From sequence record NC_047806.1: a DNA stretch of 44,018 nucleotides. One strand, given 5' to 3'. Each line of letters starts with the position of its first letter. Position 1 is the first letter of the stretch. The notes under the pieces are model-generated. The model saw nothing but the letters and a program-made list of their open reading frames with translations, searched no databases and was not told the DNA's origin. A program made the translations under genes and the position numbers. The stretch comes from Escherichia phage vB_EcoP_B. Below are positions 2,156 through 38,199 of the stretch, in pieces.

Positions 2156-3074
2156 GTCTTAATTCTCCAGCTTTGGGCAGACGAATGTTGCCCTTGCTTG
2201 AATCCTGAAGACCTTTTACTTCAAAGATTTTACCAATGACATTCAATCGTCCACCGTGTTTAATATCGTGGAACATCTGTTCTGCATCTGCATGAGTCCA
2301 CCCTTTACCTAACATAGCTTTGATTGTCTTGCCTCCTTTCCATTTGAAAATGAGGTTAGCTACCTTACCTTTGTACTTACCTTTGCCTTCTTCAAAGCCA
2401 ATACAAGTAAGGTCATAAGTTACCTTACGGACTTCTTTAGTCTGACGATAACCTTTGTGGCCTGCTTCATAATCACAGTCCAGTTTAAACACAGCACCCT
2501 CTCGGCCTGCGTCTATTTGCTCTTGCGCAAACGCTTCAACTTCTCGCTCATTATGGCAAGGAGTAATAGGAAGGATAGCGTTGTACCCGCTAAGATGAGC
2601 GCCGATGCGACGATGTAAAGCATCGTAACGTTTGAGATAAGAAACATCAGTGAATCCATCATGGAATGCCTTAATAGTTAACATATCGAAGAAGTCAATA
2701 TACAGGTTGTCTTTAATCTGCTGGCCTATGAAATCAAGTGGCTCTGTGCGATTAGGGTTAACTACTCCAGAAAGTGCTTCAAGGTAGACATCAACAGCCA
2801 TAGATTGCAACTCACCGAGATAAATGCCAGTAGGGAAAGCTGAATAAGATTCTTCCAAGGTTTCCGTGTTAGCCAGTTTCTTTCCAGTGCGTCCAAAGAC
2901 ACCAACGACACCATCGTTGCGAACAACCACAGCACTAAATATCCCATCTCGTTTTACCTGTGCATAACATGGAAAAGTTAATTTCTTCTCAGGTACTTCA
3001 CCGCGATGTTTCACCAGCATGAATGGGTGATTGCGGTGGTCTTCTGGAAGACCTAGGAATTGGAAGATATTCAT
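2127..3074 (-). CDS. ATP-dependent DNA ligase (315 aa)
   Basis: ORF track; nucleotidyltransferase motif I KRDG; strong SD GAAGGAGGTG; size/content like T7-group ligase. Confidence 0.75.
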   Translation of the reverse strand: MNIFQFLGLPEDHRNHPFMLVKHRGEVPEKKLTFPCYAQVKRDGIFSAVVVRNDGVVGVFGRTGKKLANTETLEESYSAFPTGIYLGELQSMAVDVYLEALSGVVNPNRTEPLDFIGQQIKDNLYIDFFDMLTIKAFHDGFTDVSYLKRYDALHRRIGAHLSGYNAILPITPCHNEREVEAFAQEQIDAGREGAVFKLDCDYEAGHKGYRQTKEVRKVTYDLTCIGFEEGKGKYKGKVANLIFKWKGGKTIKAMLGKGWTHADAEQMFHDIKHGGRLNVIGKIFEVKGLQDSSKGNIRLPKAGELRHDKDEPDFF

Positions 3075-3244
3075 TTCACCTCCTTCATCACACCTTTAAC
3101 TATTGCCTCTTTAAAGTATGCTAAGTCAGAACCATAGGCACTTAGGAACCACATTGCACCTTCATCATTGGAGGTCAATACAAAACCAAGAGGGCTTACT
3201 CTATATAAGTTACCGAAGTACCCTCTATATAGTTTACCTTCCAT
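3071..3244 (-). CDS. hypothetical protein (57 aa from ATG; track shows TTG-extended 63 aa)
   Basis: ORF track 3071..3262; first two starts lack SD, ATG at 3242-3244 has GAGGA SD. Confidence 0.4.
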   Translation of the reverse strand: MEGKLYRGYFGNLYRVSPLGFVLTSNDEGAMWFLSAYGSDLAYFKEAIVKGVMKEVK

Positions 3245-3245
3245 A

Positions 3246-3716
3246 TTAAATATCCTCATCAATACATTCGTGACGATGCTTCTGGAATAGCTCTTTGTAG
3301 TAGTCTGCTTTCTTCAGATCTTCTTCCGTGTTGAATTTCTTCCCTGCACGCAGACGATACTTCAAAGCATTACCCATGCAATATCCAGCAAATTGCTTCT
3401 CGGTCATACTACGAGCAATGATAGTGATTGCCTCTACCCCATCGAAGAACTCGTAGTGCTTAGGCTTAGTAACCATATTGTTGTCCAACGTGCTAGGATC
3501 TTCACCTTGCAATGAGTCAACAACCTTGAAGTAAGGTGCATACCATTCGCGCTTCTCAACACCTTCTAACATGATAGAGTTATAATTAGGTTCTGCACGG
3601 GATACTTTGAATACCCCATCTGGTTTCTTGTCTAGGCTTTCACACAGTTTATTCCAGATGGCATCTCGGTAAGCTGCACGGCGTACGACGTATTCGCCAA
3701 TATAAATCTTTGACAT
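3246..3716 (-). CDS. hypothetical protein (156 aa), possibly DUF3310-like
   Basis: ORF track 3246..3731 trimmed to ATG 3714-3716 with GGAGGA SD; KPKHY...GNALKYRLRAGKK pattern (family assignment from memory, weak). Confidence 0.5.
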   Translation of the reverse strand: MSKIYIGEYVVRRAAYRDAIWNKLCESLDKKPDGVFKVSRAEPNYNSIMLEGVEKREWYAPYFKVVDSLQGEDPSTLDNNMVTKPKHYEFFDGVEAITIIARSMTEKQFAGYCMGNALKYRLRAGKKFNTEEDLKKADYYKELFQKHRHECIDEDI

Positions 3717-5624: not shown

Positions 5625-6637
5625 TCCGCATCATCTCCCCACAAGATTGGGTTCTTATCGGCTCGCCATATATCACCTTTGAATCTAGCCATGTGAGCTA
5701 GGCGACCACATTCAAGCATCAGGTCAAAGGCTTTGCCGATACGATAACCACCTCGGTAATTCTTAATCTTAACTTGTCCATGCCCGAACTTAGCCTTGTA
5801 AGCACCCAGCACTGCCATGTACAACTCTTTCTCTGTCTTACAATCTTTGAGAAGATCATAGGCATATTTAGCACCACGACCTGGTATGCCAGCATAGTTA
5901 TCAATATCATCACCGATAATCATCTGTGCATAGTGGAACATGAGGCCAGCACCTTTTAGATCTTTGACTTGCCCATTAGCCTTACGGCGTAGCTCAAGCC
6001 AGCCCATAGGCTCTACCCACTTCTTCTCTTGACCCGGCTGTAGATGCCAACCGGGAACAATCATCAAATCCTTATCCAAGGAAACGATGCAAGTATCAGA
6101 GAATGATTTATGCTCTGGACTACCGATAGGGAACTCGTTACCTGTATCTTGCTGGAAGCGGCGGTGGCTGTCCCATTGTGCGATACTCATGAGGTCGTCT
6201 GCTTCCTCTCCATCTGCCAAGATTGCACCGTGAACCTCTAAGAGATGCTCTCGCAATTCATAGAAGAATGGAGGCTTCTCGGTCTTACGTTGACCTTTAT
6301 AAGGCTTGGTGAATGCTAGGCGGACACGGAAGTTAGCTTCTGATTTCGTCATGAATAACTTAGCTGCATCACATTCTGCTGCATACACCCAAGAGTTAAG
6401 CAAGGAGTTCACACGGTCACACGCTTGCTTACACTCAGGCGTATCTTTGATTGATGGGACTTGTCCTGACTTAACACGAGTTGTGGCTCGTACATAAGTC
6501 ATGTCGCTGATTGTATACGCGACGATGTAAGGCAACATATCGGCATCTATTAAAGCGATTCGATTACCTTCAGTCGGCCACAGGATGAGATTATTGTCTT
6601 CCGATACTGTAGCTCCGAAGTCGAAGTTTGGTCGCAT
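5609..6637 (-). CDS. 5'-3' exonuclease (gp6-like), about 342 aa
   Basis: ORF track 5609..6646 (GTG start) trimmed to ATG with AAGGAG SD; LIDADMLPY and DKDL/GIPG blocks like T7 gene 6 exonuclease. Confidence 0.75.
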   Translation of the reverse strand: MRPNFDFGATVSEDNNLILWPTEGNRIALIDADMLPYIVAYTISDMTYVRATTRVKSGQVPSIKDTPECKQACDRVNSLLNSWVYAAECDAAKLFMTKSEANFRVRLAFTKPYKGQRKTEKPPFFYELREHLLEVHGAILADGEEADDLMSIAQWDSHRRFQQDTGNEFPIGSPEHKSFSDTCIVSLDKDLMIVPGWHLQPGQEKKWVEPMGWLELRRKANGQVKDLKGAGLMFHYAQMIIGDDIDNYAGIPGRGAKYAYDLLKDCKTEKELYMAVLGAYKAKFGHGQVKIKNYRGGYRIGKAFDLMLECGRLAHMARFKGDIWRADKNPILWGDDAEWLAN

Positions 6638-6822
6638 GTAGGCCACTCCTTCAAGAAGGAGGACACCGCATCATGGAGGTTCTGTCTTAACCAATAGTCA
6701 TCCCATTGTCTCACCTCCACTAGCTTCTCACCAGTTTTGTAATCATAGGCAACCCCAATATACTGTCTGGTGATTGCATTGTAGCTAATGTCCAGTTCAA
6801 TTCGAGATTCAATAGTCGGCAT
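6550..6822 (-). CDS. hypothetical protein (90 aa)
   Basis: ORF track; ATG 6820-6822 with GGAG SD; 3' end overlaps exonuclease start by about 90 nt. Confidence 0.35.
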   Translation of the reverse strand: MPTIESRIELDISYNAITRQYIGVAYDYKTGEKLVEVRQWDDYWLRQNLHDAVSSFLKEWPTCDQTSTSELQYRKTIISSCGRLKVIESL

Positions 6823-6939
6823 AATTCATTCTCCAATAACTATTACGCAAAAGACCCTGCCTACACTAAGGCAGACAGGGCATTAGATGAGGTGAGCGTG
6901 ATAGTCAACTAGGACTAACAGAGGCTACACCTGCTATTA

Positions 6940-7311
6940 TCAAAACTCTTCCTCTTCGCTAACCGGAGCTTCCGGTGCAGACACTTCTACTGCCGGAGCT
7001 TCAGCTTCTTCAGCAGCTTTGACTTCTTTCACTGGTTTACCAGCAGCAATCCAATCCAGATATTCAGCTACGATGTTAGCCTTACCGATCTGGGCTTTGT
7101 CAGCCTGCTCAGGGAAGCAAGCACGAGCGAACTCCAGACCAGCAGCGAAGTTACCCATGCTGTCAATCTTAGCCTGAGCTTCTTCACGGGTATCGTAAGC
7201 CTTAGTACCAGCTACCAGTTGATCAGCTTCATCGACGATAATGAAAGACTCAACGGATACCAGAGCAGCACCTTTAACAACACGGTTTACGATAGTTTCA
7301 ATCTTGAACAT
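6940..7311 (-). CDS. hypothetical protein with acidic C-terminal tail ending in Phe (123 aa)
   Basis: ORF track; AAGGAG SD; C-terminus ...PEAPVSEEEEF; directly downstream of phage promoter at 7364-7384. Confidence 0.55.
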   Translation of the reverse strand: MFKIETIVNRVVKGAALVSVESFIIVDEADQLVAGTKAYDTREEAQAKIDSMGNFAAGLEFARACFPEQADKAQIGKANIVAEYLDWIAAGKPVKEVKAAEEAEAPAVEVSAPEAPVSEEEEF

Positions 7312-7399: not shown

Positions 7400-7415
7400 G
7401 TCTCACACGTGAGAC
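7400..7415 (-). other. GTCTCAC..GTGAGAC palindromic hairpin element
   Basis: gtctcacacgtgagac; between gene end 7417 and promoter 7364-7384. Confidence 0.5.
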
Positions 7416-8834: not shown

Positions 8835-9212
8835 TTATTTAGTCAAGTTGTCCAGTTCTATTTCCAGCATAACAATCTCTTTCTTCAGGCTGTCAGATGC
8901 AGCTTGATTTACAAGAGCAATTGATGCCTTGTTCTCTTCAAATTCAGCTTTCAGGCTGTCACGCTCTTGCTGGTGACGTGCCAGCATATCTTCTACCTCT
9001 TTGACTTGACGTGCATTTAGTTCATCACGAGATGCATAGTAGCGGTTATGACAGTCAATCATTTGAGAACTACGATGTTCTTCAACTTTAACTTGCTCTG
9101 CCTGTACTGCTTCGATGCGAGCCTCAATAGCTTTGATAGCCTTGGACTTGAACTTATTAGCAAGACCACGAAAGTATTGAGCCACGAATACCAGAGTAGT
9201 TACCATAGACAT
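8835..9212 (-). CDS. hypothetical protein with N-terminal hydrophobic segment and coiled-coil-like remainder (125 aa)
   Basis: ORF track; ATAGGAG SD; promoter at 9278-9299 upstream. Confidence 0.5.
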   Translation of the reverse strand: MSMVTTLVFVAQYFRGLANKFKSKAIKAIEARIEAVQAEQVKVEEHRSSQMIDCHNRYYASRDELNARQVKEVEDMLARHQQERDSLKAEFEENKASIALVNQAASDSLKKEIVMLEIELDNLTK

Positions 9213-9277
9213 ATTTATATCTCCTATATTTATTTAATTACCTATACTACCTTATAAACCTAGATTACCTAGGCTTT

Positions 9278-9299
9278 CCTTCTATAGTGTCCAGTAAAT
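9278..9299 (-). promoter_or_regulatory. phage RNAP promoter
   Basis: ATTTACTGGACACTATAGAAGG. Confidence 0.7.
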
Positions 9300-12334: not shown

Positions 12335-12456
12335 CATTGCCTCTGTTTCGTAGTAGTCATCTGAACGTTCAGGTTTTGAGTTCATTGAATCTTGGAAATC
12401 CCAATCAGAATCATAATCACGTGGCATAATGCACCTCCAATCAATATGATGAAAGG

Positions 12457-12474
12457 CTGTCTCACGTGTGAGAC
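12457..12474 (-). other. GTCTCAC..GTGAGAC palindromic hairpin element
   Basis: tgtctcacgtgtgagaca; intergenic. Confidence 0.5.
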
Positions 12475-12504
12475 AACCCTTTACTTATCGACTGCGTGTT
12501 ACAG

Positions 12505-12693
12505 TTAATTTCTGGCCCATGTATTTGCCTTGGTGTGGCTCCAAGTTGCCTCTTTGATAACTTGCTCGCGCGTCAGGCTATTCTTCTTTGCTTCAGCCAT
12601 AGTTAACTGTGCAAACAGGAAGGCTTGGTTAGTAATTTGTGCTTGCAGGTCTTCGTGACCATCAAACATCTTAAGACTGTGTTTATTTTGCAT
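12505..12693 (-). CDS. hypothetical protein (62 aa)
   Basis: ORF track; ATG start, weak SD. Confidence 0.35.
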   Translation of the reverse strand: MQNKHSLKMFDGHEDLQAQITNQAFLFAQLTMAEAKKNSLTREQVIKEATWSHTKANTWARN

Positions 12694-13595: not shown

Positions 13596-13635
13596 AATCA
13601 ATCTCCAGTTATTTAATATATACTTAATAAGAGCC

Positions 13636-13653
13636 TGTCTCACATATGAGACA
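13636..13653 (-). other. GTCTCAC..GTGAGAC palindromic hairpin element
   Basis: tgtctcacatatgagaca; between helicase stop and next gene. Confidence 0.5.
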
Positions 13654-13673
13654 AGCCCCGATAAATACACTAA

Positions 13674-15662
13674 TCAGAACTCACTTTCTTCATCGAAGTT
13701 AGTCTCTTCTATAGTGTCTGGTAAATCAGGTACTTCTTGTTGCCTTGCTTCACCTGTATCAAATGACTTAGTACGAGCTTGTGGTTCCATTAAACGTCCG
13801 GTTTGAATGTCACCCTTGAGCATGACCTTGGTTCCAGTGTAGATACCTTGGTCGCGGTCTTTGACACATGAGATGTACGTGGTAGTCCTTTCATCAAGCG
13901 TTTCAGCTCTTGTATTACGCTCAATCCCCAAGGCGTAAGATGCCCAGAATCCGATAGCGCCTGAGCCTCGGAAGTCAGAAAGGATAACTTCGCCACCTTC
14001 TTCGTGTTGGGTACGGTTTGCCGGAGGACGTGTAAGGTGAGAGACAAGGAAAATCGTAACCGCATGTCGATCTTTGATAGTACCAATTCGTTTGACGCAT
14101 TCATCAAGTGCACCAACCTTCCCACCAAAAGCACGCTCATCTAATTTAATCCCCGTTAAGTTATCAATGATGATATTAGAAATGCCCATAGCCTCAAACT
14201 CTAGGCAAGTTTGCTCTACCTTCTCCATAGAATAGTCACCCTCTAGGTCAGCTACAAACAGCTTCCCTGTATCAGCTACATAATCAATGGCGGCATTAGC
14301 CTCTTCCTCAGTATAGTCGAACACCTCACGGTATCCGTCTTCTTTCGGGTCATTGGTTGGCGGTAACTCAATGCGCTTATCAATCCACTTACCGATAAAA
14401 GCACGGGACACCTTGACCATCGGGTCTTCTGTAGAAATGATGCCTACAGATTCACCATGTTCTTCAATAAGATGTTTAACCACTTCGCGGAGGAACTCAG
14501 TCTTACCTACACCAGAGCCTGCACCTACAATGATAAGCTGGTTCTTACGAATACCTAGCGTTACCTTGTTCAGCTTAGGCCAAGGCCATGATAGCCCTTG
14601 CTCTGGACGTGCAGCCTTGAGCTTATCCCTTTGAGATGCGATAGATTTAATATGGCTACCAAAGACTTCATCAGATGACTTGGCATTAAACCAAGCATCA
14701 ACAAACTCTTTAGCCTTGCCAGCCATCAATGCCTTGTTAGCATCTTTGCAACCAGAAGGGTATTCAAGGATATAGGATTTGCCAGGAAACAGGCGAGCCG
14801 CTTGCTGATTCTGCTTCTGCCCTACCTCATCTCCATCAAAACCCCATATAATCTTCTTAAATTGGGCGATGTGTTCACGGTTCTGTACTATCTCTTCAAG
14901 GCAAGACTCACCTTTATTGACAGACCATACATGGTAAGGCTGGCCTTCCCACTTAGTACCCTTGGCAGAATCAAGGAGCATTTGCTGTGCTGCTAGTGCA
15001 TCCAGTTCGCCGCCGACAATGAGCAAGTGATCCTTTCGTCTTCCCTTGTCTAACACGTGAGACAAAGTATTCATCCCGAAAAGATCTTGCATACCAAAGA
15101 GTTTACCTAAATGACCAAACTTAAAGTCTTTAGGTAATGTGCGACACTTAGCGCCTACTAGTTCACCTTTCTCGAAGCGTGGATAGTAATGCCGTGAGAC
15201 TCTACCCTCTTCATCGTGTCCGACACGTACATCATACAATGCGCAAATGTCGCCGCGAATGTGTCGGGAAACAAGATTCTTACGCTTAAGCGTGAGGAAC
15301 CATTCAACATCAAGTTTCCACTCTGCTTCTTGGTCTGCCCTTTCTTGCTCATTCATGACCTCCCATCGGTCTTTCATACGCATGCCACCAAGTGCGATGG
15401 CGCGTAACTTAGGGTCGCTTATCTTCCCTTCCTTCTCCATCTCTTTGAATTGAGAAGGTGTATATTTGATATTGCCAGTAATAGGCAACTCGGTGATCTC
15501 GATGCCACCATCTGGCTTATGATAGTAAGGCTTGCCGTTATCGTGGAAATGACCACGGTTACAATAGCCAGCACCATCATCAAATATCATGAGATGATTG
15601 CCGGATTTATCGTGTCCATTCTTCTGGCAGGCAGGGCACGGGATGTTATTAATAATAGCCAT
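13674..15662 (-). CDS. bifunctional DNA primase/helicase (gp4-like), 662 aa
   Basis: ORF track; N-terminal zinc ribbon CPACQ...CNRGH, Walker A GAGSGVGKT, acidic C-terminus ending ...FDEESEF; AAGGTG SD. Confidence 0.85.
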   Translation of the reverse strand: MAIINNIPCPACQKNGHDKSGNHLMIFDDGAGYCNRGHFHDNGKPYYHKPDGGIEITELPITGNIKYTPSQFKEMEKEGKISDPKLRAIALGGMRMKDRWEVMNEQERADQEAEWKLDVEWFLTLKRKNLVSRHIRGDICALYDVRVGHDEEGRVSRHYYPRFEKGELVGAKCRTLPKDFKFGHLGKLFGMQDLFGMNTLSHVLDKGRRKDHLLIVGGELDALAAQQMLLDSAKGTKWEGQPYHVWSVNKGESCLEEIVQNREHIAQFKKIIWGFDGDEVGQKQNQQAARLFPGKSYILEYPSGCKDANKALMAGKAKEFVDAWFNAKSSDEVFGSHIKSIASQRDKLKAARPEQGLSWPWPKLNKVTLGIRKNQLIIVGAGSGVGKTEFLREVVKHLIEEHGESVGIISTEDPMVKVSRAFIGKWIDKRIELPPTNDPKEDGYREVFDYTEEEANAAIDYVADTGKLFVADLEGDYSMEKVEQTCLEFEAMGISNIIIDNLTGIKLDERAFGGKVGALDECVKRIGTIKDRHAVTIFLVSHLTRPPANRTQHEEGGEVILSDFRGSGAIGFWASYALGIERNTRAETLDERTTTYISCVKDRDQGIYTGTKVMLKGDIQTGRLMEPQARTKSFDTGEARQQEVPDLPDTIEETNFDEESEF
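13706..13726 (-). promoter_or_regulatory. phage RNAP promoter inside 3' end of helicase gene
   Basis: ATTTACCAGACACTATAGAAG. Confidence 0.6.
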
Positions 15663-15880
15663 TAGTTCACCTTAATAGTTCTGGGTTGGTAAGAGTCAGC
15701 TTTTCTACGCTTAGAGATAAACTTCTTTGCATCCCTTTCGGTGCAGAAGATAGCCTCTGTATCAGTATAGCCAATAGGCATCATACACGTGACCCATATT
15801 AAGCCTAATACTTTACGTTGCACTATGTAGCACTCTTGCCCGTGACTATTTAAACAGGTCTTGATTCTGTATTTAGCCAT
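15662..15880 (-). CDS. hypothetical protein (72 aa)
   Basis: ORF track; ATG 15878-15880; stop overlaps helicase start (TAATG). Confidence 0.45.
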   Translation of the reverse strand: MAKYRIKTCLNSHGQECYIVQRKVLGLIWVTCMMPIGYTDTEAIFCTERDAKKFISKRRKADSYQPRTIKVN

Positions 15881-15883
15881 AAC

Positions 15884-16012
15884 TTAGAACCCCCACGCAG
15901 CGCGTTTAGATGCACGGTCACGGACAGGTTTATTCAGCTTCTTGCCTTTCTTCTGCCCTTCTTCCATGTCAAAACGGTTAGCTTTACGGGTCATCTTCTC
16001 AAAGTTACGCAT
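15884..16012 (-). CDS. gp1.1-like small basic protein (42 aa); not in ORF track (<60 aa)
   Basis: ATG 16010-16012 with GGAG SD just downstream of promoter 16038-16060; translation MRNFEKMTRKANRFDMEEGQKKGKKLNKPVRDRASKRAAWGF resembles T7 gp1.1 (MRNFEKMT..., from memory). Confidence 0.5.
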   Translation of the reverse strand: MRNFEKMTRKANRFDMEEGQKKGKKLNKPVRDRASKRAAWGF

Positions 16013-16037
16013 GGTTAAATCTCCAAAGTGAGTTAAT

Positions 16038-16060
16038 CTTATCTATACTGTCCGGTAAAT
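16038..16060 (-). promoter_or_regulatory. phage RNAP promoter variant (upstream of gp1.1-like ORF)
   Basis: ATTTACCGGACAGTATAGATAAG (C-to-G change in core). Confidence 0.5.
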
Positions 16061-16065
16061 ACGAA

Positions 16066-16081
16066 GTCTCACATGTGAGAC
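16066..16081 (-). other. GTCTCAC..GTGAGAC palindromic hairpin element
   Basis: perfect 16-bp palindrome gtctcacatgtgagac, 5 nt upstream of promoter 16038-16060. Confidence 0.55.
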
Positions 16082-16084
16082 AAC

Positions 16085-16223
16085 CTAGGTCTGCCCTTCC
16101 TCTAAGTGGTAATAAGAGGAAGGAAGAAGGTAATAGGTATTCCTAGATAACCTATATAACCTTTAATACCTATTACTTCCTTTATATCCTTTATCTTCCC
16201 TTTCTTTCCCGTCTCCGACGGCT
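16085..16223. other. AT-rich repeat-containing spacer between tandem phage promoters; candidate primary replication origin
   Basis: non-coding, AT-rich, repeated AGGAAG/TATTACC/AGGTTAT motifs; flanked by promoters 16224-16244 and 16038-16060 (T7 origin sits in the analogous place). Confidence 0.35.
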
Positions 16224-16244
16224 ATCCTATAGTGTCCGGTAAAT
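16224..16244 (-). promoter_or_regulatory. phage RNAP promoter (first after RNAP gene)
   Basis: ATTTACCGGACACTATAGGAT. Confidence 0.6.
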
Positions 16245-16247
16245 AAA

Positions 16248-16263
16248 GTCTCACATGTGAGAC
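16248..16263 (-). other. GTCTCAC..GTGAGAC palindromic hairpin element
   Basis: perfect 16-bp palindrome, 3 nt upstream of promoter 16224-16244. Confidence 0.55.
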
Positions 16264-16298
16264 ACGTTTTATGTTAATGAAATGTTACAGGTAGTAGG

Positions 16299-16327
16299 TA
16301 AAAGAAAGCCACTCCCGAAGGAATGGC
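16299..16327 (-). terminator. intrinsic terminator after RNAP gene (early terminator candidate)
   Basis: RNA GCCAUUCC-UUCG-GGAGUGGC (8-bp stem, UUCG loop) followed by CUUUCUUUU. Confidence 0.55.
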
Positions 16328-16336
16328 CTATTAATA

Positions 16337-18964
16337 TTATGCGAAACAATAGTCTGAAACTAAGATTTCGTTAAGGTCAAACTCCCCTTGCTCTGGTACT
16401 TGGATTCCGGTGTCTACTAACCAACGCTCTTCGTGCACATCTAGCAGGTTTTGCAGGGCATTATGGTTTTGATACATCTTAACCATTTCTTCCCTTAAGC
16501 TATCCCGCAGGTCTGCGGTACGTCCTGCATGAGTACCGAAAGAATCATGGATGACTGCAATGGATGTAATACCTTTATCCACTAGGTCACATACAGTCAG
16601 AATCAGGTGGCTAGCATCGTGACCATGGACGAAGTTAGGAGCAGCCGCACCCATCATTGCCGTTTCATCAACTACATCTGTTTCAATCTGGAGACTCATC
16701 TTGATTTCACCCATCAAGCAAGTGGATACGCGGAGCATATCTGTAGCCATTATCTTTTGTTGCAAGATGAAGCCAGTTGGTAAGGGATATTCTAAGCCTT
16801 CGTTTCTTTTAGCTGCGAAACGTGCAAGCTGACGAATCATTTTCATTGCCACTATAGGAGCTTTAACCACTTCCGAGATAGAAGGCCAGATTAAAGCTGT
16901 CATATAGTTATAAGCTGCGCTAGGTGTCAGGCTGTCTTTACGGTCATTATCAAAAGGGTGTACAGGATTGGCGGTACGCCCTTCCGCAATAGCCCGTTGG
17001 GCCTCTTTTTCTTCTAAATCAACGATATAATCAATCACTGACTCACGGCAGGTTAGACGTGTGCTGCCATAAGGTAGTGTCATTACGGGCTTTTTGGTCA
17101 GGCCGCGAGTGATTCCTATCATATCCCACGCACTAGCCATACTACGCAGTTCCGCACCTGTTAAAGTCACGCTGCCAGAAGTGAAGGTTTCCGCATCCTC
17201 TGCATTCATGTATGCATAATTCTTCTGAATTACTACCTGCGCAACGGCACCATAAATATCTTGAGGAGAGTCAGAGGGCTTAAGGTTTACTGCTTTCGCA
17301 CCTACTGCATCGCGTAGCATAGCACTGTAGTGCTGGATACCAGAACAACTACCATCTTGATGGACTGGGAGGTGCGTCATGAATTGGTCTTGCGTGCCTT
17401 CATCCAGTGCATCCAGATAACGCGCATATTCAAAGCACCATGCAAGGAAGCCGTAAGGGGAGTCGGCATTTACCCATTGAGTGAAGGTCAGCGGATCCGC
17501 TGCAATGTCGCGGCACATGTCTTGAAATTCACCATCCAGCACGTTAGCGGTGCGCACGTCAAAAGTTTTCTTATCCCAACCCCAGTTATTAGCCCCGTTC
17601 ACCAAAAACCACTTAAGCGCCTCAGCGCTATCAAGACGCTGCCCTTCGGTAAAACGGAGCAATGCCTTGCCTAAGTCGTTTGATTGCGGAGAGAGCGTGC
17701 TAGATTGCGCGTAGACGCGGCTGCGGCTGTCCAGAGCATACACGAAGTATATTGCGTCAAATTGGCTGTATTTACGGGCCTGCCCTACCATGCGGACGGT
17801 CGCCGCCGATTTGCTGCCGCGCTTAGTCTCAGCGGTATACAGCTTGGTGCATTCACCTTTCCAGTTGATGAAGGCTTGCCATTGTTCCGGTGTTAACATT
17901 TCTTTCAGTTCACGTCCTCGCAGGTGCTGGAACTCTAACGGCACCGGATTAGCTGGCTTGTTCTCACGGTCGATGAGTGGTTTAAAGGAAGGTACACCAT
18001 AGCCGAGGTCTAGACGTATAACGTCCTCCACAACCTGTAAAACCTCTTTATTAACCTGCCACTTAGTTGCCTGCAAAGCGTTAACAGCCTTATAAACGGC
18101 TGGCATTTGCTTTTTGGTCAGCTTGCGGACGTGCTCACGATTGCCTTTTACCAGACGAATACGGCTTGCTACTTTCTCAGTATGAAACCCACCGTTAAAA
18201 GGTGATACCCAAGGGCGGGGAGGTATAACGCAAGGTGCATAGGCAGGGCTGAGCTGCGCTACATGTTCCTTAAATGCAGTTATCCACTCTCCAACATGTT
18301 CACTGGTCTGTAAATAGTAAACACCATGCTTTCCGCCGTTAGTGCGCAAGGTACGAAGGAAGACAGGTTGACCATTGAAGAATACACTATTCTCCAATAT
18401 TTCGAGCAAGGTCATACCGATTTGCAGCAAGGTGTCTTTAGGCCATGCCTCCCAACGGGAGAAATCCGCGTCACGGTCAGCAACAGATTTCTCAGCTACT
18501 ACCGCTACGTTGTGCGCATGACGATAAGATTTAGTCTTGCTAGCCTTAAGCGACTTCTTCACTTTCTCAAAGTACTTAGCTGCGTGACCTTCCAGCTTGC
18601 TAAAACGTACTTGGTCTTCGATGCGGTCCGCTACATTCATAGCGATGGCTTGTAAGGTAACGTCTGTATTCAGCATGTCCATAACGATTTTCATGGTGAT
18701 ATATGCTGCTACTTCGTTTTCTACGCAGTTAATGAAAGCTAATGCACGCGGTGCGCGGCCTCTTTTACCTTCGTACTCTTCCTTATAAGCCTGAATACCT
18801 TCCGCCATAGGTGCGATTAGTTCGGACAATAAGCGGCGATTCCATGCCGTGTCTGATTCATTACCGGATGCAATCTGGCGTTGTTGGTCCGCTTCAAAGC
18901 GACGGATACCGCCGTTAAACATTTCTTCTTCAAGTTGAAGTTGAATAGCGTGTAGGTCTTGCAT
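16337..18964 (-). CDS. single-subunit DNA-directed RNA polymerase (T7/SP6-like), 875 aa
   Basis: ORF track; [18 protein letters not shown] and C-terminal ...DYCFA match T7 RNAP catalytic and foot motifs; length close to SP6-group RNAP; AGGAG SD. Confidence 0.9.
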
Positions 18965-19027: not shown

Positions 19028-19912
19028 TTACTTAGTCAACTCTTCTACTGCCTCAGAGATTAAGGGCCATGCTTCATGGCCTTCACCGTAGCCTAGCTTA
19101 ACCAGTTCGCGGCGTGCCTTGTTAACTGCTGTTTTCTTCGTTGCCTCCTCAGCGCTTAAACCTAAGCGAGCATAGAAGCAGGAAGATTTGAATTGCGGCA
19201 GCATAGGCGCGGCTGCCTTCTTGCTTTCGCGTGCGCTACTTAAGGAGGCGATGCGGTCATTGGCTGCCTGTAATTGCTCAGTCAGTGCTTTAATTTGTGC
19301 CAGCAGACCAGCAATAGCGGCATTCTCAGTATTAGCCGTGTTATCCAGCGGCGCGGCCTTCGGTGCCTCCGGCTTGCTTTCCTCTCCCCATGGTGCTGAT
19401 TCGTCGGCCTCCTGCTCGCTCGCGGGTGGCACTACCTGCGGCGCTTGCATTTCCTGTGATTCTGCGGCCTCAGTCGCGTTCTCCTGCGGTTTTACTGTCT
19501 CAGCCTTAGATTGTACCGTTTCGGCCTTTATCTCTTTCTTAGGCTCAATCAAGGCGTTTACGGAGTTAGTGTCCAGCTTGCCATCTGCGGCGAGTTCTGC
19601 GGCCTTCTCCATGATTATATTTTCATCAGCGAAAGGAACAAGCGCCAGCATTACACGCATAGCCACACCTTTAAAGCGTTCGTCTCCTTTAAAGACACGG
19701 GCTACACTCATCAGCTTGTAGCATTGTGCCTTCTTGATGCCGAACTCTGATTCTACATAAGCTAAAAAGTCTTTTTGACCTTCGAAATCACCGCGTAATT
19801 CATTCAGACAAGCGCCAACTTTGATGTAAGAAGTGCCGATATTGTCTAAGTGCTGCTTGATTTCAGCGGTTGCAGCTTCACGAACAGACAGGAGGATGTT
19901 TTCAGTAGTCAT
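19028..19912 (-). CDS. early protein of unknown function (about 294 aa) with acidic low-complexity linker
   Basis: ORF track 19028..19921 (GTG start) trimmed to ATG with AAGGTG SD. Confidence 0.55.
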   Translation of the reverse strand: MTTENILLSVREAATAEIKQHLDNIGTSYIKVGACLNELRGDFEGQKDFLAYVESEFGIKKAQCYKLMSVARVFKGDERFKGVAMRVMLALVPFADENIIMEKAAELAADGKLDTNSVNALIEPKKEIKAETVQSKAETVKPQENATEAAESQEMQAPQVVPPASEQEADESAPWGEESKPEAPKAAPLDNTANTENAAIAGLLAQIKALTEQLQAANDRIASLSSARESKKAAAPMLPQFKSSCFYARLGLSAEEATKKTAVNKARRELVKLGYGEGHEAWPLISEAVEELTK

Positions 19913-19976
19913 AATAGTCACCTTATATAGTGGTAAGTAAATATCACATAGCCCACACAGGCAGGCTATAGGCTAG

Positions 19977-21915: not shown

Positions 21916-22085
21916 TTGTCTAACGTGTGAGACTAAGGAAAAAAAAAAAAAAAAAAAAGCAATAGATACAGAGCTAGGATAGGCTAGATTGGCTAGGTAT
22001 TCCAAACGTGAAGGGGAGAAAAAGGAAAAAAAAAAAAAAAAAAAAGCAATAGATACAGAGCTAGGATAGGCTAGATTGGCTAGGT
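21916..22085. repeat. tandem direct repeat (two about 87-bp units) each containing an A20 tract; probable genome-terminus / terminal-repeat junction
   Basis: 62-bp exact repeat GG-A20-GCAATAGATACAGAGCTAGGATAGGCTAGATTGGCTAGGT at 21937-21998 and 22024-22085; lies between last late gene and first early gene. Confidence 0.7.
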
Positions 22086-23196: not shown

Positions 23197-25632
23197 TTAA
23201 CTGGTTTTATTAGTGGCATACATCTCCTCTAACTTGTCTAAACGATAACGAGTATAAGCAGCCTCCAAGATTAAGATTTCACTATATCTAACACCAAACT
23301 GACCTTCTTCGAAGGAGACAATGCCGAAGTCGATTGCATCTAACCCTTCGGATGCAAAAGCAGCTACAATGTCTTGTGCCAATACACCAAAGTGAGTGTG
23401 ATGCACACCACTAGACATCTCTCCAATCAACTTGTACTGCTTGAAGGCAACCTTGCCCCATGCCTTTAGTACACCCTCATCAATACCTTGTGATCCATAC
23501 TTATGAGTGGCATCAGACGTAATAATAGGGTCACTTGTAAGATGGATAGTAGTGAATCTATTACGAGGGCCGCCAGCAGGATACACGTTATCATTGTATG
23601 GCATGATAGCCCCGCTTTGGAACAAGTGCTCATTGGCATTATATACTGCGCGTCTAGAAGTACTAGAACCTGCTCCATGTAAGGTAATTTGCGCACCGGT
23701 ATCTGCTGCTGTACCCTCTCCACCAGAGATGATGACACGTTGGGCAGTTGGGTTATCCGTTGGTATAGTCTTACCAATGAACCCATATTCACCTTCCATC
23801 AGCATCTCTGAGCGAATATTAGCACTTGTACTTGCCTTCAGGGTAAGGTGTTCGACAGTCATATCTGCGGCAACTACCTCTCCTGATAAGTGAAGTGGAG
23901 CAGGAATAGTACGAATACCATCAGTACCCATGAAGGTAGGTATAGCCTGACCCGGAGTTGCACCATATGTAAACTTACGAGATACACGATTGTCATTTGC
24001 AATCTGCATCTTATAGCAGTATATATCAGTGGGGTGTCCATGACCTTTAAATGGGTCTTTATCTTTGTTGTCACCATAAGTCATTGGGTTGAAATGGTTT
24101 TCTCCACCAAAGATATAGTAAATGTAGCTGTCTTTAACTACTACCGAACCTACACCTACACTAGAGTTCACAATGTCACCCTGATAGATTTGGTCTGTGA
24201 TGTTAACCCATTCAATGTCATCTGCATTCCACTTGTTTACATTCAATCGTGCATAGAAGGTACGAGGATAAGATGCCTTGTAACGATCATCGGGTGCACC
24301 TGCTTCCCATTCATTTTCTGCACGTTCTGAACCAAACATAATAAGGTCATCTCCTACTTTAGCAAAAGGTAAGGTAGTATGATGAACATTATGTGGAAAT
24401 CTTAGTGACTCCCAAGTTTGACCTATATCTCTACTACGATGCAGAGAGCTTCCTAGTCGATCGCCACGAGTACCACGAGTGATAAGGTACAATACACCGT
24501 CATAGTACTTGATGCATGGCTCTGCCGCATCTGGTTCATACTCAGATGGTATCTGACGACGAACATAATTAGATGGGCTATTGAAAGCATCAGGGAAGTA
24601 GAAAAGCCCAACTTCTCGTGGAGCTACATCACCTTGATGATAGCCCATAACAAAGCCATTGTTATCAATAGTAGCAAAGCTATGCACCTCTGTGACACGA
24701 GTGATTAGACCAAGATCTGTCTTACGCCAAGGAGATTTATGGAAAGAAGTACCCATGTGCCAACTCTTTCCAGCGTTATTCAAATCTGAAGTCTGCTGGT
24801 TAGGTGTAAGAACCGTGAAGTTGTCCTTATCTATTACTGTTGCAACCTTCATATCACCAGATACACCTGTTACCGCAGAGTTAGAGAAGTTAACAAAATC
24901 ACCAACGAAGAGTCCGTGATCAGGTACATGGATTGTTGCATATCTCTGATTTGCAGCCTTAGTGATACCACCAGTAAGATGCAGACTACGAGACATAGGG
25001 CGATCCCACAATGCACAATTGGTTAGTGCGTTCTTGGCTAAAGTACGTGTTTCAATCATGGCAAACAGACGGTTGCGACATACACCCATACTCATACAAT
25101 GATAGTTCACTGTAGGGTAATCTGGATGCAGATCAGTTAACCACTCTGGAGTAGACCATGTTTGACCATCGTCACCAGACTTAACCCATGATACATGCAG
25201 ACGACTAACACCATGACGGTCGCTACCCATGTAAGGTGCATATATCACGTTCTCATATACAAACGCTTTGTCTTGAGGCCAAGCATTGTAATAAGGGTTA
25301 TCCGTGATTTTATAGAGTTCACCATTGATAAAACCTTTACTCACATAGTAAAGAGGTTGACCTGCTAAACGTTCCCATACGAAGCGGGTGTTATAGAATC
25401 GCTCCATATCAGGTAAAGATGATACTTTGTAAGTAGCACCAGCACCGTCAATTCTCTTACCTGAAGCCATCGCTGCATTTACTGCATCTTGGTCGTTTGT
25501 CTTACCATCACCTTTGGCTCCAAAATCTTTAAGCGATACAACCTCGGTGAGCTTGTCATCCAAGTTACGCCAGATTGCACCTGCTATTTTACTCTTGAAT
25601 TTAACTAATGAAGAACCTAGTCTTTGAATCAT
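23197..25632 (-). CDS. tailspike with endosialidase (endo-N-acetylneuraminidase) catalytic domain, 811 aa
   Basis: ORF track; two sialidase Asp-boxes SGDDGQTW and SRDIGQTW; C-terminal chaperone-like segment; AAAGGAGG SD; last structural gene before genome end as in K1E/K1-5-type phages (from memory). Confidence 0.8.
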   Translation of the reverse strand: MIQRLGSSLVKFKSKIAGAIWRNLDDKLTEVVSLKDFGAKGDGKTNDQDAVNAAMASGKRIDGAGATYKVSSLPDMERFYNTRFVWERLAGQPLYYVSKGFINGELYKITDNPYYNAWPQDKAFVYENVIYAPYMGSDRHGVSRLHVSWVKSGDDGQTWSTPEWLTDLHPDYPTVNYHCMSMGVCRNRLFAMIETRTLAKNALTNCALWDRPMSRSLHLTGGITKAANQRYATIHVPDHGLFVGDFVNFSNSAVTGVSGDMKVATVIDKDNFTVLTPNQQTSDLNNAGKSWHMGTSFHKSPWRKTDLGLITRVTEVHSFATIDNNGFVMGYHQGDVAPREVGLFYFPDAFNSPSNYVRRQIPSEYEPDAAEPCIKYYDGVLYLITRGTRGDRLGSSLHRSRDIGQTWESLRFPHNVHHTTLPFAKVGDDLIMFGSERAENEWEAGAPDDRYKASYPRTFYARLNVNKWNADDIEWVNITDQIYQGDIVNSSVGVGSVVVKDSYIYYIFGGENHFNPMTYGDNKDKDPFKGHGHPTDIYCYKMQIANDNRVSRKFTYGATPGQAIPTFMGTDGIRTIPAPLHLSGEVVAADMTVEHLTLKASTSANIRSEMLMEGEYGFIGKTIPTDNPTAQRVIISGGEGTAADTGAQITLHGAGSSTSRRAVYNANEHLFQSGAIMPYNDNVYPAGGPRNRFTTIHLTSDPIITSDATHKYGSQGIDEGVLKAWGKVAFKQYKLIGEMSSGVHHTHFGVLAQDIVAAFASEGLDAIDFGIVSFEEGQFGVRYSEILILEAAYTRYRLDKLEEMYATNKTS

Positions 25633-27376: not shown

Positions 27377-27655
27377 TTAAGCTGGGGTAATAGTAGTGAC
27401 CGCTTTATTAGCTGTCAACCAATTGGAATCTTCTTTGCCATCAACTGCGATAGCAATAACCAGGTTATCATGTGTATCAAGACACACCATGGCCCCTTTC
27501 TGCTTACCTGATTTGGTGGCATCATTAATAACATCACCTTTCTTCTCAACAGTGTCCTCGTAAACTACAGGAAGCATCAGGGCTTCACTAACAGGTTGTA
27601 TCTGCTTACGAGCAGACTTACCTGTAAGGGGTTGTGTACTATAACTATTAGACAT
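27377..27655 (-). CDS. small protein, paralog A (about 92 aa)
   Basis: ORF track 27377..27715 trimmed to ATG 27653-27655 with AGGAGAG SD. Confidence 0.5.
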   Translation of the reverse strand: MSNSYSTQPLTGKSARKQIQPVSEALMLPVVYEDTVEKKGDVINDATKSGKQKGAMVCLDTHDNLVIAIAVDGKEDSNWLTANKAVTTITPA

Positions 27656-27788
27656 TCTCTCTCCTATTATGTAAGTATAGTAAGGAAGTAAGGAATAGGG
27701 TGTACAGGAGTACACCCATACTAAGGAATACCTATATAACCTAGGTTAACCTATATTATCCTTGTTATTCTCTTATTATCTGGGCCTT

Positions 27789-27810
27789 CCTTCTATAGTG
27801 TCCGGTAATT
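27789..27810 (-). promoter_or_regulatory. phage RNAP promoter (overlaps terminase stop)
   Basis: AATTACCGGACACTATAGAAGG. Confidence 0.65.
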
Positions 27811-34494: not shown

Positions 34495-34512
34495 TGTCTC
34501 ACATGTGAGACA
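34495..34512 (-). other. GTCTCAC..GTGAGAC palindromic hairpin element
   Basis: perfect 18-bp palindrome tgtctcacatgtgagaca between internal virion protein genes. Confidence 0.55.
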
Positions 34513-37477: not shown

Positions 37478-38199
37478 TAAATACCTCTTGTTCCAGATGA
37501 ATATGTGCGAGAATCAGTTAAGGCTTTACCCAATGCCTTGCCAGACTTACTACCAGTTACATAGGCAGATGCCAGACTTGGAATACCTTTAACCAAGGTA
37601 TTCATAGCAGAAGGCTTCTTAAACTCACGCATCTGCATCTGACCACCACGTTGGATAGACTTAAGCTGGTTGGTGAAATTAATCTTCTGATTCTCATAGT
37701 TATCAATGATAGTACTCTGGTTTCTGCCGCCATCTGCTGCTAAGTCATTAAGCATAGAGGACACAGAATTACCACCAGTACCAGTAGCCCCAGCAAGTAA
37801 TGCAACCTGTGCTCGCTGCTGTAGCAGTGAAGCCTGATTACTGATTGCATCTGCATGATATTGTTTAGCAGCAGAACGTTCTGCGTCTGCCACTGTCTTG
37901 TACGCCTCTTGTGTAGCAATAAGCTGCTGCCGCCATTGCTCTTCTTGTGCTTTCTTCATCGCCTTGGCTTCATCACTTCCACCAAAGAGATCACCAATCA
38001 AGCCTAACCCTTGAAGGCCAGCACCAAGAAGGCCAGCATTAGAGAAACCAGCAGTGGAGCCACTTAGGAATCCACCTAGTGAACCTAGCAAACCTCCGCC
38101 ACCTGCGGCAGCACCTCCAGCAGCGGCTGCTGCACCGCTGCCTGCAAACATACTACCAATAGAAGACATACCAGACATAACGGCTGAACCTATAGCCAT
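37477..38199 (-). CDS. internal virion protein, Gly/Ala-rich (about 240 aa)
   Basis: ORF track 37477..38238 trimmed to ATG 38197-38199 with AGGAGG SD overlapping tail-tube B stop. Confidence 0.6.
   Translation of the reverse strand: MAIGSAVMSGMSSIGSMFAGSGAAAAAGGAAAGGGGLLGSLGGFLSGSTAGFSNAGLLGAGLQGLGLIGDLFGGSDEAKAMKKAQEEQWRQQLIATQEAYKTVADAERSAAKQYHADAISNQASLLQQRAQVALLAGATGTGGNSVSSMLNDLAADGGRNQSTIIDNYENQKINFTNQLKSIQRGGQMQMREFKKPSAMNTLVKGIPSLASAYVTGSKSGKALGKALTDSRTYSSGTRGI

Follow-up and report, generated by a model that had tools for sequence, protein, structure and literature searches.

A promoter-flanked repeat spacer downstream of the RNA polymerase gene of a K1E-like phage as a candidate T7-like replication origin

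In the 44,018-nt DNA of Escherichia phage vB_EcoP_B (NC_047806.1; the whole stretch is referred to here as the window), a 139-bp spacer at 16085-16223 lies between two phage promoters, downstream of the gene for the phage RNA polymerase (RNAP) and upstream of gene 8. The initial annotation had put this spacer forward as a candidate primary origin of replication. The locus is 99.6% identical to positions 6668-7218 of Escherichia phage K1E, and the source phage is a K1E-like Vectrevirus of the SP6/K1-5/K1E group (Molineuxvirinae, Autographiviridae). The window is a circularly permuted and reverse-complemented genome, and its minus strand carries all genes. On the comparisons presented here, the spacer appears to be the transcribed part of a control region at the early/middle boundary and the positional homologue of the T7 series phi1.1A - R1.1 - phi1.1B - gene 1.1, in which R1.1 is known as the RNase III processing site formed by the hairpin between the two T7 promoters. 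As an origin, which we infer from position and composition, it is a reasonable candidate and not the only one in the genome.

Read along the minus strand, the stop codon of the RNAP gene is followed by a terminator-like hairpin, a conserved block, a first palindrome, the promoter P1 and a mini-hairpin (H1); next come an array of AGG(W) units, inverted units, a hairpin (H3), the motif ACCTAGGT, a second palindrome, the promoter P2 and gene 8. All of these features are on the minus strand, apart from the palindromes, to which no strand is assigned. The RNAP gene (K1E gene 7, 16337-18964) encodes a single-subunit enzyme of 875 aa according to the list of open reading frames (ORFs) and the K1E annotation. 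Gene 8 (15884-16012) encodes a basic 42-aa protein homologous to the product of T7 gene 1.1; it matches Pfam family PF08200 (Phage_1_1; E = 7.6e-16, 58.7 bits with a cut-off of 21) and is 55% identical to T7 gp1.1. A 31-nt leader separates P2 from gene 8, and gene 8.5 and then the primase/helicase gene lie downstream. The spacer contains no ORF of at least 30 aa on either strand, and no sigma-70 promoters were found within 15800-16500.

The terminator-like hairpin (16306-16329), recovered in a terminator scan, is GC-rich with ten pairs and a T run in its tail TCTTTTACCT, and is located directly 3' of the RNAP stop codon. A terminator is annotated at this site in phages KAW1A4500 and Premi, every relative has a counterpart hairpin, and it is probably here that the early transcription unit ends. 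Between it and the first palindrome is the block ACCTACTACCTGTAACATTTCATTAACA (16266-16300), near-identical across Vectrevirus, SP6, and the Salmonella and Klebsiella relatives. P1 (ATTTACCGGACACTATAGGATAG, 16222-16244, +1 at 16227) has the core TTTACCGGACACTATAG at 16243-16227 without mismatch. P2 (ACAGTATAGATAAG, 16038-16060, +1 at 16043) is a non-consensus promoter for the same enzyme, its core TTTACCGGACAGTATAG at 16059-16043 having one mismatch. The two start sites are 184 bp apart. Both promoters belong to a family of 13 minus-strand sites in the window (0.15 expected by chance), within which a leave-one-out position weight matrix gives P1 29.4 bits and P2 21.2 bits, the second weakest score of the 13. 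The sequence of P1 and P2 shifts with the promoter type of each relative, and P2 is off the local consensus in several of them.

Upstream of each promoter is an exact copy of the 16-bp palindrome GTCTCACATGTGAGAC. Copy 1 (16248-16263) covers -36 to -21 of the P1 start and ends 4 bp before the promoter match; copy 2 (16066-16081) covers -38 to -23 of the P2 start, 6 bp before the match, and shows zero diversity among 11 Vectrevirus genomes. Just upstream of copy 2, motif positions place the short palindrome ACCTAGGT at 16083-16090, and most relatives have a CCTAGG core before P2.

The transcript of P1 would open with H1 (CCGTC-GGA-GACGG, 16209-16221), a 13-nt element at +7 to +19. Its stem is 100% paired in 14 distinct sequences, with a centre pair that is GC in eight, AU in four, and CG and UA in one each, and the covariation score was reached by none of 500 shuffles. 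The G-N-A triloop is kept on the sense strand only and H1 is otherwise essentially invariant. H1 is clearly a selected stem-loop. The only other exact match in the window (23303-23315) is in coding sequence and was set aside as a chance occurrence.

Downstream of H1 are seven forward AGG(W) units with a spacing of 9-10 nt (16142-16203), located from unit positions and by Tandem Repeats Finder (TRF), which reports period-9 arrays at 16142-16194. These units are inside a C-free run of the sense strand (16210-16147) that, at 64 nt, is the longest in the genome. Inverted, CCT-containing units make up a 39-nt G-free run (16103-16141) and pair with the forward array, as seen both as an inverted repeat and in the RNA fold; this pairing accounts for the hairpin noted in the initial annotation. 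H3 (CCTTCCTCT / AGAGGAAGG, 16095-16123) is a 9-bp hairpin with an 11-nt loop in the RNA fold, and relatives have a hairpin of other sequence at its position. The repeats comprise an 18-nt inverted pair (16124-16141 / 16165-16182, 89% complementary), a 9-nt inverted pair (16095-16103 / 16115-16123, 100% complementary) and a direct-repeat family of three 15-nt copies. The picture drawn in the initial annotation, of a non-coding segment bracketed by two phage promoters, each preceded by a GTCTCAC palindrome, with short repeats and a hairpin inside, is borne out by these elements. The description of the segment as AT-rich suits a 60-bp core (16138-16197), whose 25% GC places it in the lowest 0.2% of windows and makes it the fourth lowest of the genome, and not the spacer as a whole, which at 39.6% GC, compared with 45.0% for the window, is at the 13th percentile of 140-bp windows.

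Relatives for comparison were SP6, Salmonella, Klebsiella and Proteus phages, and contigs from IMG/VR whose RNAP C-termini are 73-98% identical to that of the window. The plan of terminator, palindrome, P1, H1, AGGW array, inverted units and P2 is present in every SP6-like phage sampled, and the module is found in Vectrevirus, Zindervirus, Klebsiella, Proteus (Acadevirus) and IMG/VR relatives despite the change in promoter sequence. The distance from P1 to P2 varies between 129 and 194 nt. Even in genomes in which gene 8 has been displaced, or is preceded, by an HNH endonuclease gene, the module is retained; more generally, gene 8.5 and HNH endonuclease genes are variably present beside the RNAP-gene 8 locus. 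In nine lineages, 3-9 forward AGGW units are followed by 2-6 inverted ones, successive units are 9 or 10 nt apart in 31 of 40 intervals, and the first units of the array, AAAGTAATAGGTA, are identical between genera. A pattern scan of IMG/VR returned 120 stretches, 20 of which, all SP6-like, had an array and a second promoter, and the combination of promoter, H1, array and second promoter was confined to SP6-like contigs. A recurrent match to GAACAAGCCATCGAAGATGG in the same scan turned out to be coding sequence and was discarded.

Sequence diversity was compared among 7-11 Vectrevirus genomes. Intergenic diversity at the locus is 0.046-0.049, compared with 0.19-0.29 at third codon positions of the flanking genes, which indicates purifying selection. 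The third positions of gene 8 itself have a diversity of 0.045-0.072; 42-codon windows of the neighbouring genes have medians of 0.20-0.26, and at most 1% of them are as low as gene 8. Low diversity thus extends from the stop codon of the RNAP gene across gene 8, a pattern suggestive of an overlapping constraint at the nucleic-acid level downstream of P2.

One explanation of the conserved elements is that they serve gene expression only. P1 and P2 would be middle promoters, the spacer would be the 5' leader of the P1 mRNA, and replication would start elsewhere or at no preferred site. H1 would protect the 5' end, the long imperfect hairpin would undergo processing of the RNase III type, like that at R1.1 of T7, and the AGGW units, which resemble Shine-Dalgarno sequences, would support ribosome standby or translation. 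We regard this as a serious alternative, although not one to be expected on balance. The compensatory covariation of H1 and the sense-strand-only conservation of its loop speak for it. Because 5'-proximal hairpins also open other phage-promoter leaders in the genome, a role in RNA stability is the simplest reading of H1 and would fit the same explanation. Outside this locus, two clear mRNA leaders have AGGW arrays, one being that of K1E gene 15, in which the array is immediately 5' of the ribosome-binding site, and the other being the leader that follows the terminase gene. In T7, the DNA separating phi1.1A from phi1.1B folds as a hairpin with two stems.

Folding of the spacer bears on this explanation in both directions. 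In ten of ten lineages the spacer folds better than mononucleotide shuffles (z -2.9 to -7.3), and in seven of the ten the sense strand gives the more stable fold of the two strands. The K1E fold, an interrupted helix of 17-18 bp (16124-16182) beside a 9-bp hairpin, is however not significant when dinucleotides are shuffled (z -1.46). The topology of the array part varies between lineages, with nested helices of 12 and 9 bp in L029 and L034, and RNAalifold applied to ten Zindervirus and Klebsiella-type sequences found no shared pairs in the part made up of array and inverted units, retaining only H1 and the palindrome. A search of Rfam 15 found no family match, the best hits being miRNA-precursor models at 14-22 bits, below gathering thresholds of 64-85. 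What is conserved is the repeat unit in both orientations, not one fold. The retention of units without a particular fold tells against both a structured non-coding RNA and a classical RNase III site, and leaves room for a function of the array in the DNA itself, for example through protein binding, phased bending or ease of melting. Its position, more than 100 nt upstream of the start of gene 8 with a second promoter in between, would also be odd for a translation enhancer. In any case, a function in gene expression is compatible with an origin, as the T7 region does both.

A different use of the transcript would be as a discrete non-coding RNA of ~170 nt that starts at P1, ends at the hairpin of palindrome 2 with its U-rich tail, and acts in trans. 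The conserved 5' hairpin is in keeping with such an RNA, and both palindromes with their T-rich tails score as terminator-like, in a region where 700 bp contain four such sites compared with 0.4 expected. The palindrome hairpin has only six pairs, however, and what looks like its tail is the AT-rich 5' portion of the promoter that follows. Palindrome 2 is absent from the Proteus-type, L029, L031 and L034 lineages, which keep the remaining elements. The lack of palindrome 2 and the U-rich tail in several lineages, together with the result from Rfam, makes a discrete small RNA very improbable in our judgement.

The palindrome extends well beyond the spacer. Eight exact copies of GTCTCACATGTGAGAC are present in the window (7400-7415, 12459-12474, 13637-13652, 15048-15063, 16066-16081, 16248-16263, 21918-21933 and 34496-34511), where 0.21 would be expected, and SP6 (L036) has nine copies of its version (493, 6093, 6264, 7071, 8547, 9383, 14255, 17752 and 30569). 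Five of the 8-9 copies per genome are in the interval between the RNAP and DNA polymerase genes. The arms are GTCTCAC-NN-GTGAGAC in the K1E type and GTCTAAC-NN-GTTGGAC in the SP6 type, a switch of one base pair that has occurred in concert at every orthologous copy. This includes the copy inside the primase/helicase gene, where it comes at the cost of an Asn-to-His replacement (Ser-Asn-Val-Leu-Asp in SP6, Ser-His-Val-Leu-Asp in the window). In other genera, GTCCAAC-NN-GTTGGAC replaces copy 1 at the equivalent place. The SP6 palindromes have a T.G mismatch in six of nine copies, invariably U.G on the sense strand, and G.U pairs lengthen the stems of three K1E copies. The centre of the palindrome is 2 nt in most genera and 3 nt in the Proteus phages. 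Taken together, the family points to a sequence-specific hairpin that some factor would recognise. A candidate for a factor acting on the palindromes is K1E gp6 (phrog_4571), a 297-aa early protein encoded just upstream of the RNAP gene (19028-19921, minus strand). It has no Pfam match and is conserved in SP6, whose gp7 gene (2435-3319) is of equal length and at the equivalent place.

In a separate observation, ~1 kb from the left end of the genome, 21935-22049 (minus strand) contains two T-rich, A-free runs of 40 and 28 nt. These include T runs of ~20, and each is preceded by the direct repeat cctagccaatctagcctatcctagctctgtatctattgc. The second leads to a degenerate copy of the palindrome and to AACCTAGGTT, upstream of apparent early host-type promoters.

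Repeats and palindromes together raise the question of an iteron-type module, in which a phage or host factor would bind the AGGW units, the palindromes or both, and would either load the primase/helicase, unlike the situation in T7, or switch the middle promoters. The regular 9-10 nt spacing with forward and then inverted units, the identity of the first units between genera, the concerted change of the palindrome even within the primase/helicase gene, and the clustering of copies between the RNAP and DNA polymerase genes all speak for such a module. We nevertheless consider it unlikely. The units are short and degenerate compared with classical iterons of 17-22 bp, and the change in centre length, the U.G mismatches and the G.U extensions of the stems fit a hairpin better than a double-stranded site for a dimer. 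Pfam and PHROGs searches with eight early and middle proteins of unknown function found no initiator or DNA-binding domain. A related idea, to which we give similarly little credence, is that AGGW units, H1 and palindromes could form one module read by a trans-acting factor that co-evolves with the palindrome and acts as initiator or as switch. Such a factor would link the onset of middle transcription with primase/helicase loading, and the SP6/K1E origin may then not be purely T7-like.

The reading that we favour, tentatively and at slightly less than an even chance, is that the spacer is bifunctional, a leader that doubles as the first promoter-dependent, T7-like origin, with the other array leaders as secondary sites. 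The presence of an RNAP gene, tandem promoters and a homologue of gene 1.1 in this order makes the locus the positional homologue of the T7 primary origin, and this synteny is the strongest support for the idea. The similar map position, the conservation of the module and the purifying selection on it, the AT-rich core downstream of P1, the retention of units in place of a fold and the phased repeats in origin-linked leaders of T7 also count in its favour. Early transcription by the host RNAP most likely ends at the terminator-like hairpin after the RNAP gene. From P1 and P2 the phage enzyme then transcribes gene 8 and the primase/helicase gene. The P1 transcript carries the strictly conserved GNA-triloop mini-hairpin first, about seven AGGW units next and the inverted copies last. 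As in T7, transcription by the phage enzyme from P1 (and P2) into AT-rich, easily opened DNA could provide a primer, or strand opening, for the DNA polymerase, and the primase/helicase, encoded adjacently, would load on the displaced strand. On this reading the spacer would be the first and main promoter-dependent origin while serving as an mRNA leader. The leaders at 9282 and 27793, with promoter and array, and the AT-rich leader at 13709 would be back-up origins similar to the secondary origins of T7.

Several of these leaders share the features of the spacer, and this is part of the evidence that weighs against an origin at this particular site. Near-identical AGGW arrays with a period of ~10 nt follow promoter 9282, before K1E gene 15, and promoter 27793 (9209-9282 and 27654-27793, minus strand). 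By scan, the GC content of leaders is 20% at 13709, 21.7% at 9282, 25% in the P1 spacer and 26.7% at 27793, and an AT scan that recovers the T7 origins ranks the P1 spacer fourth; three or four other promoter leaders equal or surpass it in AT content. The palindrome is dispersed, with eight copies here and nine in SP6. Palindrome, repeats and AT-richness, offered in the initial annotation as hallmarks of the site, are therefore not specific to it. The analogy to phi1.1A/1.1B that it drew is strengthened by the gene 1.1 homologue, which goes beyond what it cited, but the layout differs: the AT-rich origin DNA of T7 follows both promoters, and here the AT-rich array is between them. Nor is low diversity a special mark of the spacer, a notion that was dropped when two other intergenic regions proved equally conserved (0.047-0.053), as would also be expected if the region served gene expression only. 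The Vectrevirus intergenic regions 12428-12504, 13596-13673 and 16013-16336 are all ~5-fold less diverse (0.046-0.053) than adjacent third positions. A high density of regulatory signals is one possible cause, and conserved linkers for recombination at the borders of modules are another.

With all genes on one strand, the cumulative GC skew of the window and of SP6 is monotonic and carries no origin signal. An R-loop score, which compares the stability of the RNA:DNA hybrid with that of the duplex using nearest-neighbour values, ranks the P1 leader second in the genome but misses both the T7 origin (36th-67th percentile) and the SP6 leader, and was rejected. The T7 primase recognizes 5'-GTC-3'. 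The site of the SP6 primase is 5'-GCA-3' (PMC2034472), which occurs once on the sense strand of the K1E-type (+134), SP6 (+116) and L034 (+120) spacers. It is not conserved, being absent from the spacers of Klebsiella, GRNsp03, L027 (IMG/VR), Proteus, L029 and L031. The literature searched contained no origin mapping or replication data for SP6-like phages; a suggested origin of SP6 at the DNA polymerase gene (Dobbins et al., 2004) is cited in PMC4837284.

SP6 has arrays at the three orthologous places, 6135, 12559 (12559-12630) and 37790 (37790-37920). The 27793 leader repeats the grammar of the P1 spacer, with a purine-rich start, an array, a hairpin with a TCC loop and the pyrimidine-rich tract CCTATTCCTTACTTCCTT, and the stem of its hairpin co-varies between K1E (GGGTGTAC/GTACACCC) and SP6 (GGGAGGTA/TACCTCCC). 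Promoter 37790 of SP6 is directly 3' of the gene for the large terminase subunit, the position of phiOR in T7, and the architecture of the 27793 leader is alike. The 9282 and 27793 leaders may be back-up origins, as the T7 model would have it, or may indicate that the array is an ordinary leader element.

SP6/K1E-type phages are used therapeutically against K1 E. coli, Salmonella and Klebsiella, and are the source of SP6 RNA polymerase. If the spacer is an origin, the T7 mode of transcription-primed initiation, and its place in the genome, would have been kept across two anciently diverged subfamilies, and the site would offer genome engineering a defined target and could be used to build orthogonal replicons that run on SP6-type polymerases. 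Regardless of an origin, these phages have a conserved set of non-coding signals consisting of H1, the AGGW arrays of three leaders and a dispersed palindrome that co-evolves, and their intergenic DNA evolves ~5 times more slowly than synonymous sites.

Iteron origins (lambda ori, oriV of theta plasmids) and the inverted pentanucleotide arrays in the origin core of simian virus 40 (SV40) and polyoma share with the locus phased direct repeats with inverted copies near an AT-rich stretch and replication genes. The units here are degenerate, of ~9-10 bp, and ordinary mRNA leaders have this array too. Each secondary origin of T7 (phiOL, phi6.5 and phiOR) is a phage promoter with AT-rich DNA behind it. 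In T7, phiOR and phi6.5 are secondary origins (PMC8373140), and the segments downstream of phiOL, phi1.1B, phi6.5 and phiOR are the lowest windows of 60-100 bp in a GC scan. The K1E-type genome likewise has promoters with AT-rich leaders after 13709, 9282 and 27793; these leaders equal or exceed the P1 spacer in AT-richness, hence AT content provides no ranking into primary and secondary sites. The phiOL, phi1.1B and phi6.5 leaders of T7 (L037; 405-473, 5923-6007 and 18545-18632) contain phased motifs of the CTTAAG/CTTTAAG type, spaced ~10-12 bp, among them TTAACTTTAAG, which is an element of the gene 10 leader too. The CTTAAG-type motifs are a possible counterpart of the AGGW/CCTAGG arrays of SP6-like phages.

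With R1.1 of T7, the spacer shares a hairpin-forming segment between tandem promoters, at the start of the phi1.1A or P1 transcript. The spacer has several helices of lineage-variable topology and no shared consensus except the 5-bp H1, which alone is too short to be a substrate of RNase III. The beginnings of the transcripts loosely resemble each other: both the phi1.1A transcript (5848-5885, GAGGGACAAACUCAAGGUCAUUCGCAAGAGUGG) and P1 transcripts (GAACAAACCCUUCGGAGAAGG; L007, L029, L031 and L034) have ACAAAC and then a stem-loop with UUCG-AAGA. H1 and the upper stem of R1.1 may share ancestry, which on so short a match is a lead only.

The closest parallel is the primary origin of T7. Replication of T7 starts at the primary origins phi1.1A/phi1.1B, and no T7 origin can do without a T7 promoter (PMC8373140). 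Origin activity is proven for T7; the K1E-type locus is a candidate. The T7 promoters are separated by 75 bp and those here by 184 bp; the RNAP gene here ends right before the terminator-like hairpin, and the early terminator TE of T7 comes only after gene 1.3; and T7 has neither the H1 motif nor a counterpart of the dispersed palindrome. Against these differences stands the shared order of RNAP gene, two tandem phage promoters and a gene of the gene 1.1 family, annotated in T7 as the end of the RNAP gene at 5822, phi1.1A at 5848, phi1.1B at 5923 and gene 1.1 at 6007. The promoters are weak and of the middle class in both phages, and in both loci short phased repeats accompany AT-rich DNA on the 3' side of a phage promoter, the AT-richness here being that of the 60-bp core. 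The map positions are also alike, ~6.9 kb in the 45.3-kb genome of K1E and 5.85-5.92 kb in the 39.9-kb genome of T7, or ~15% from the left end.

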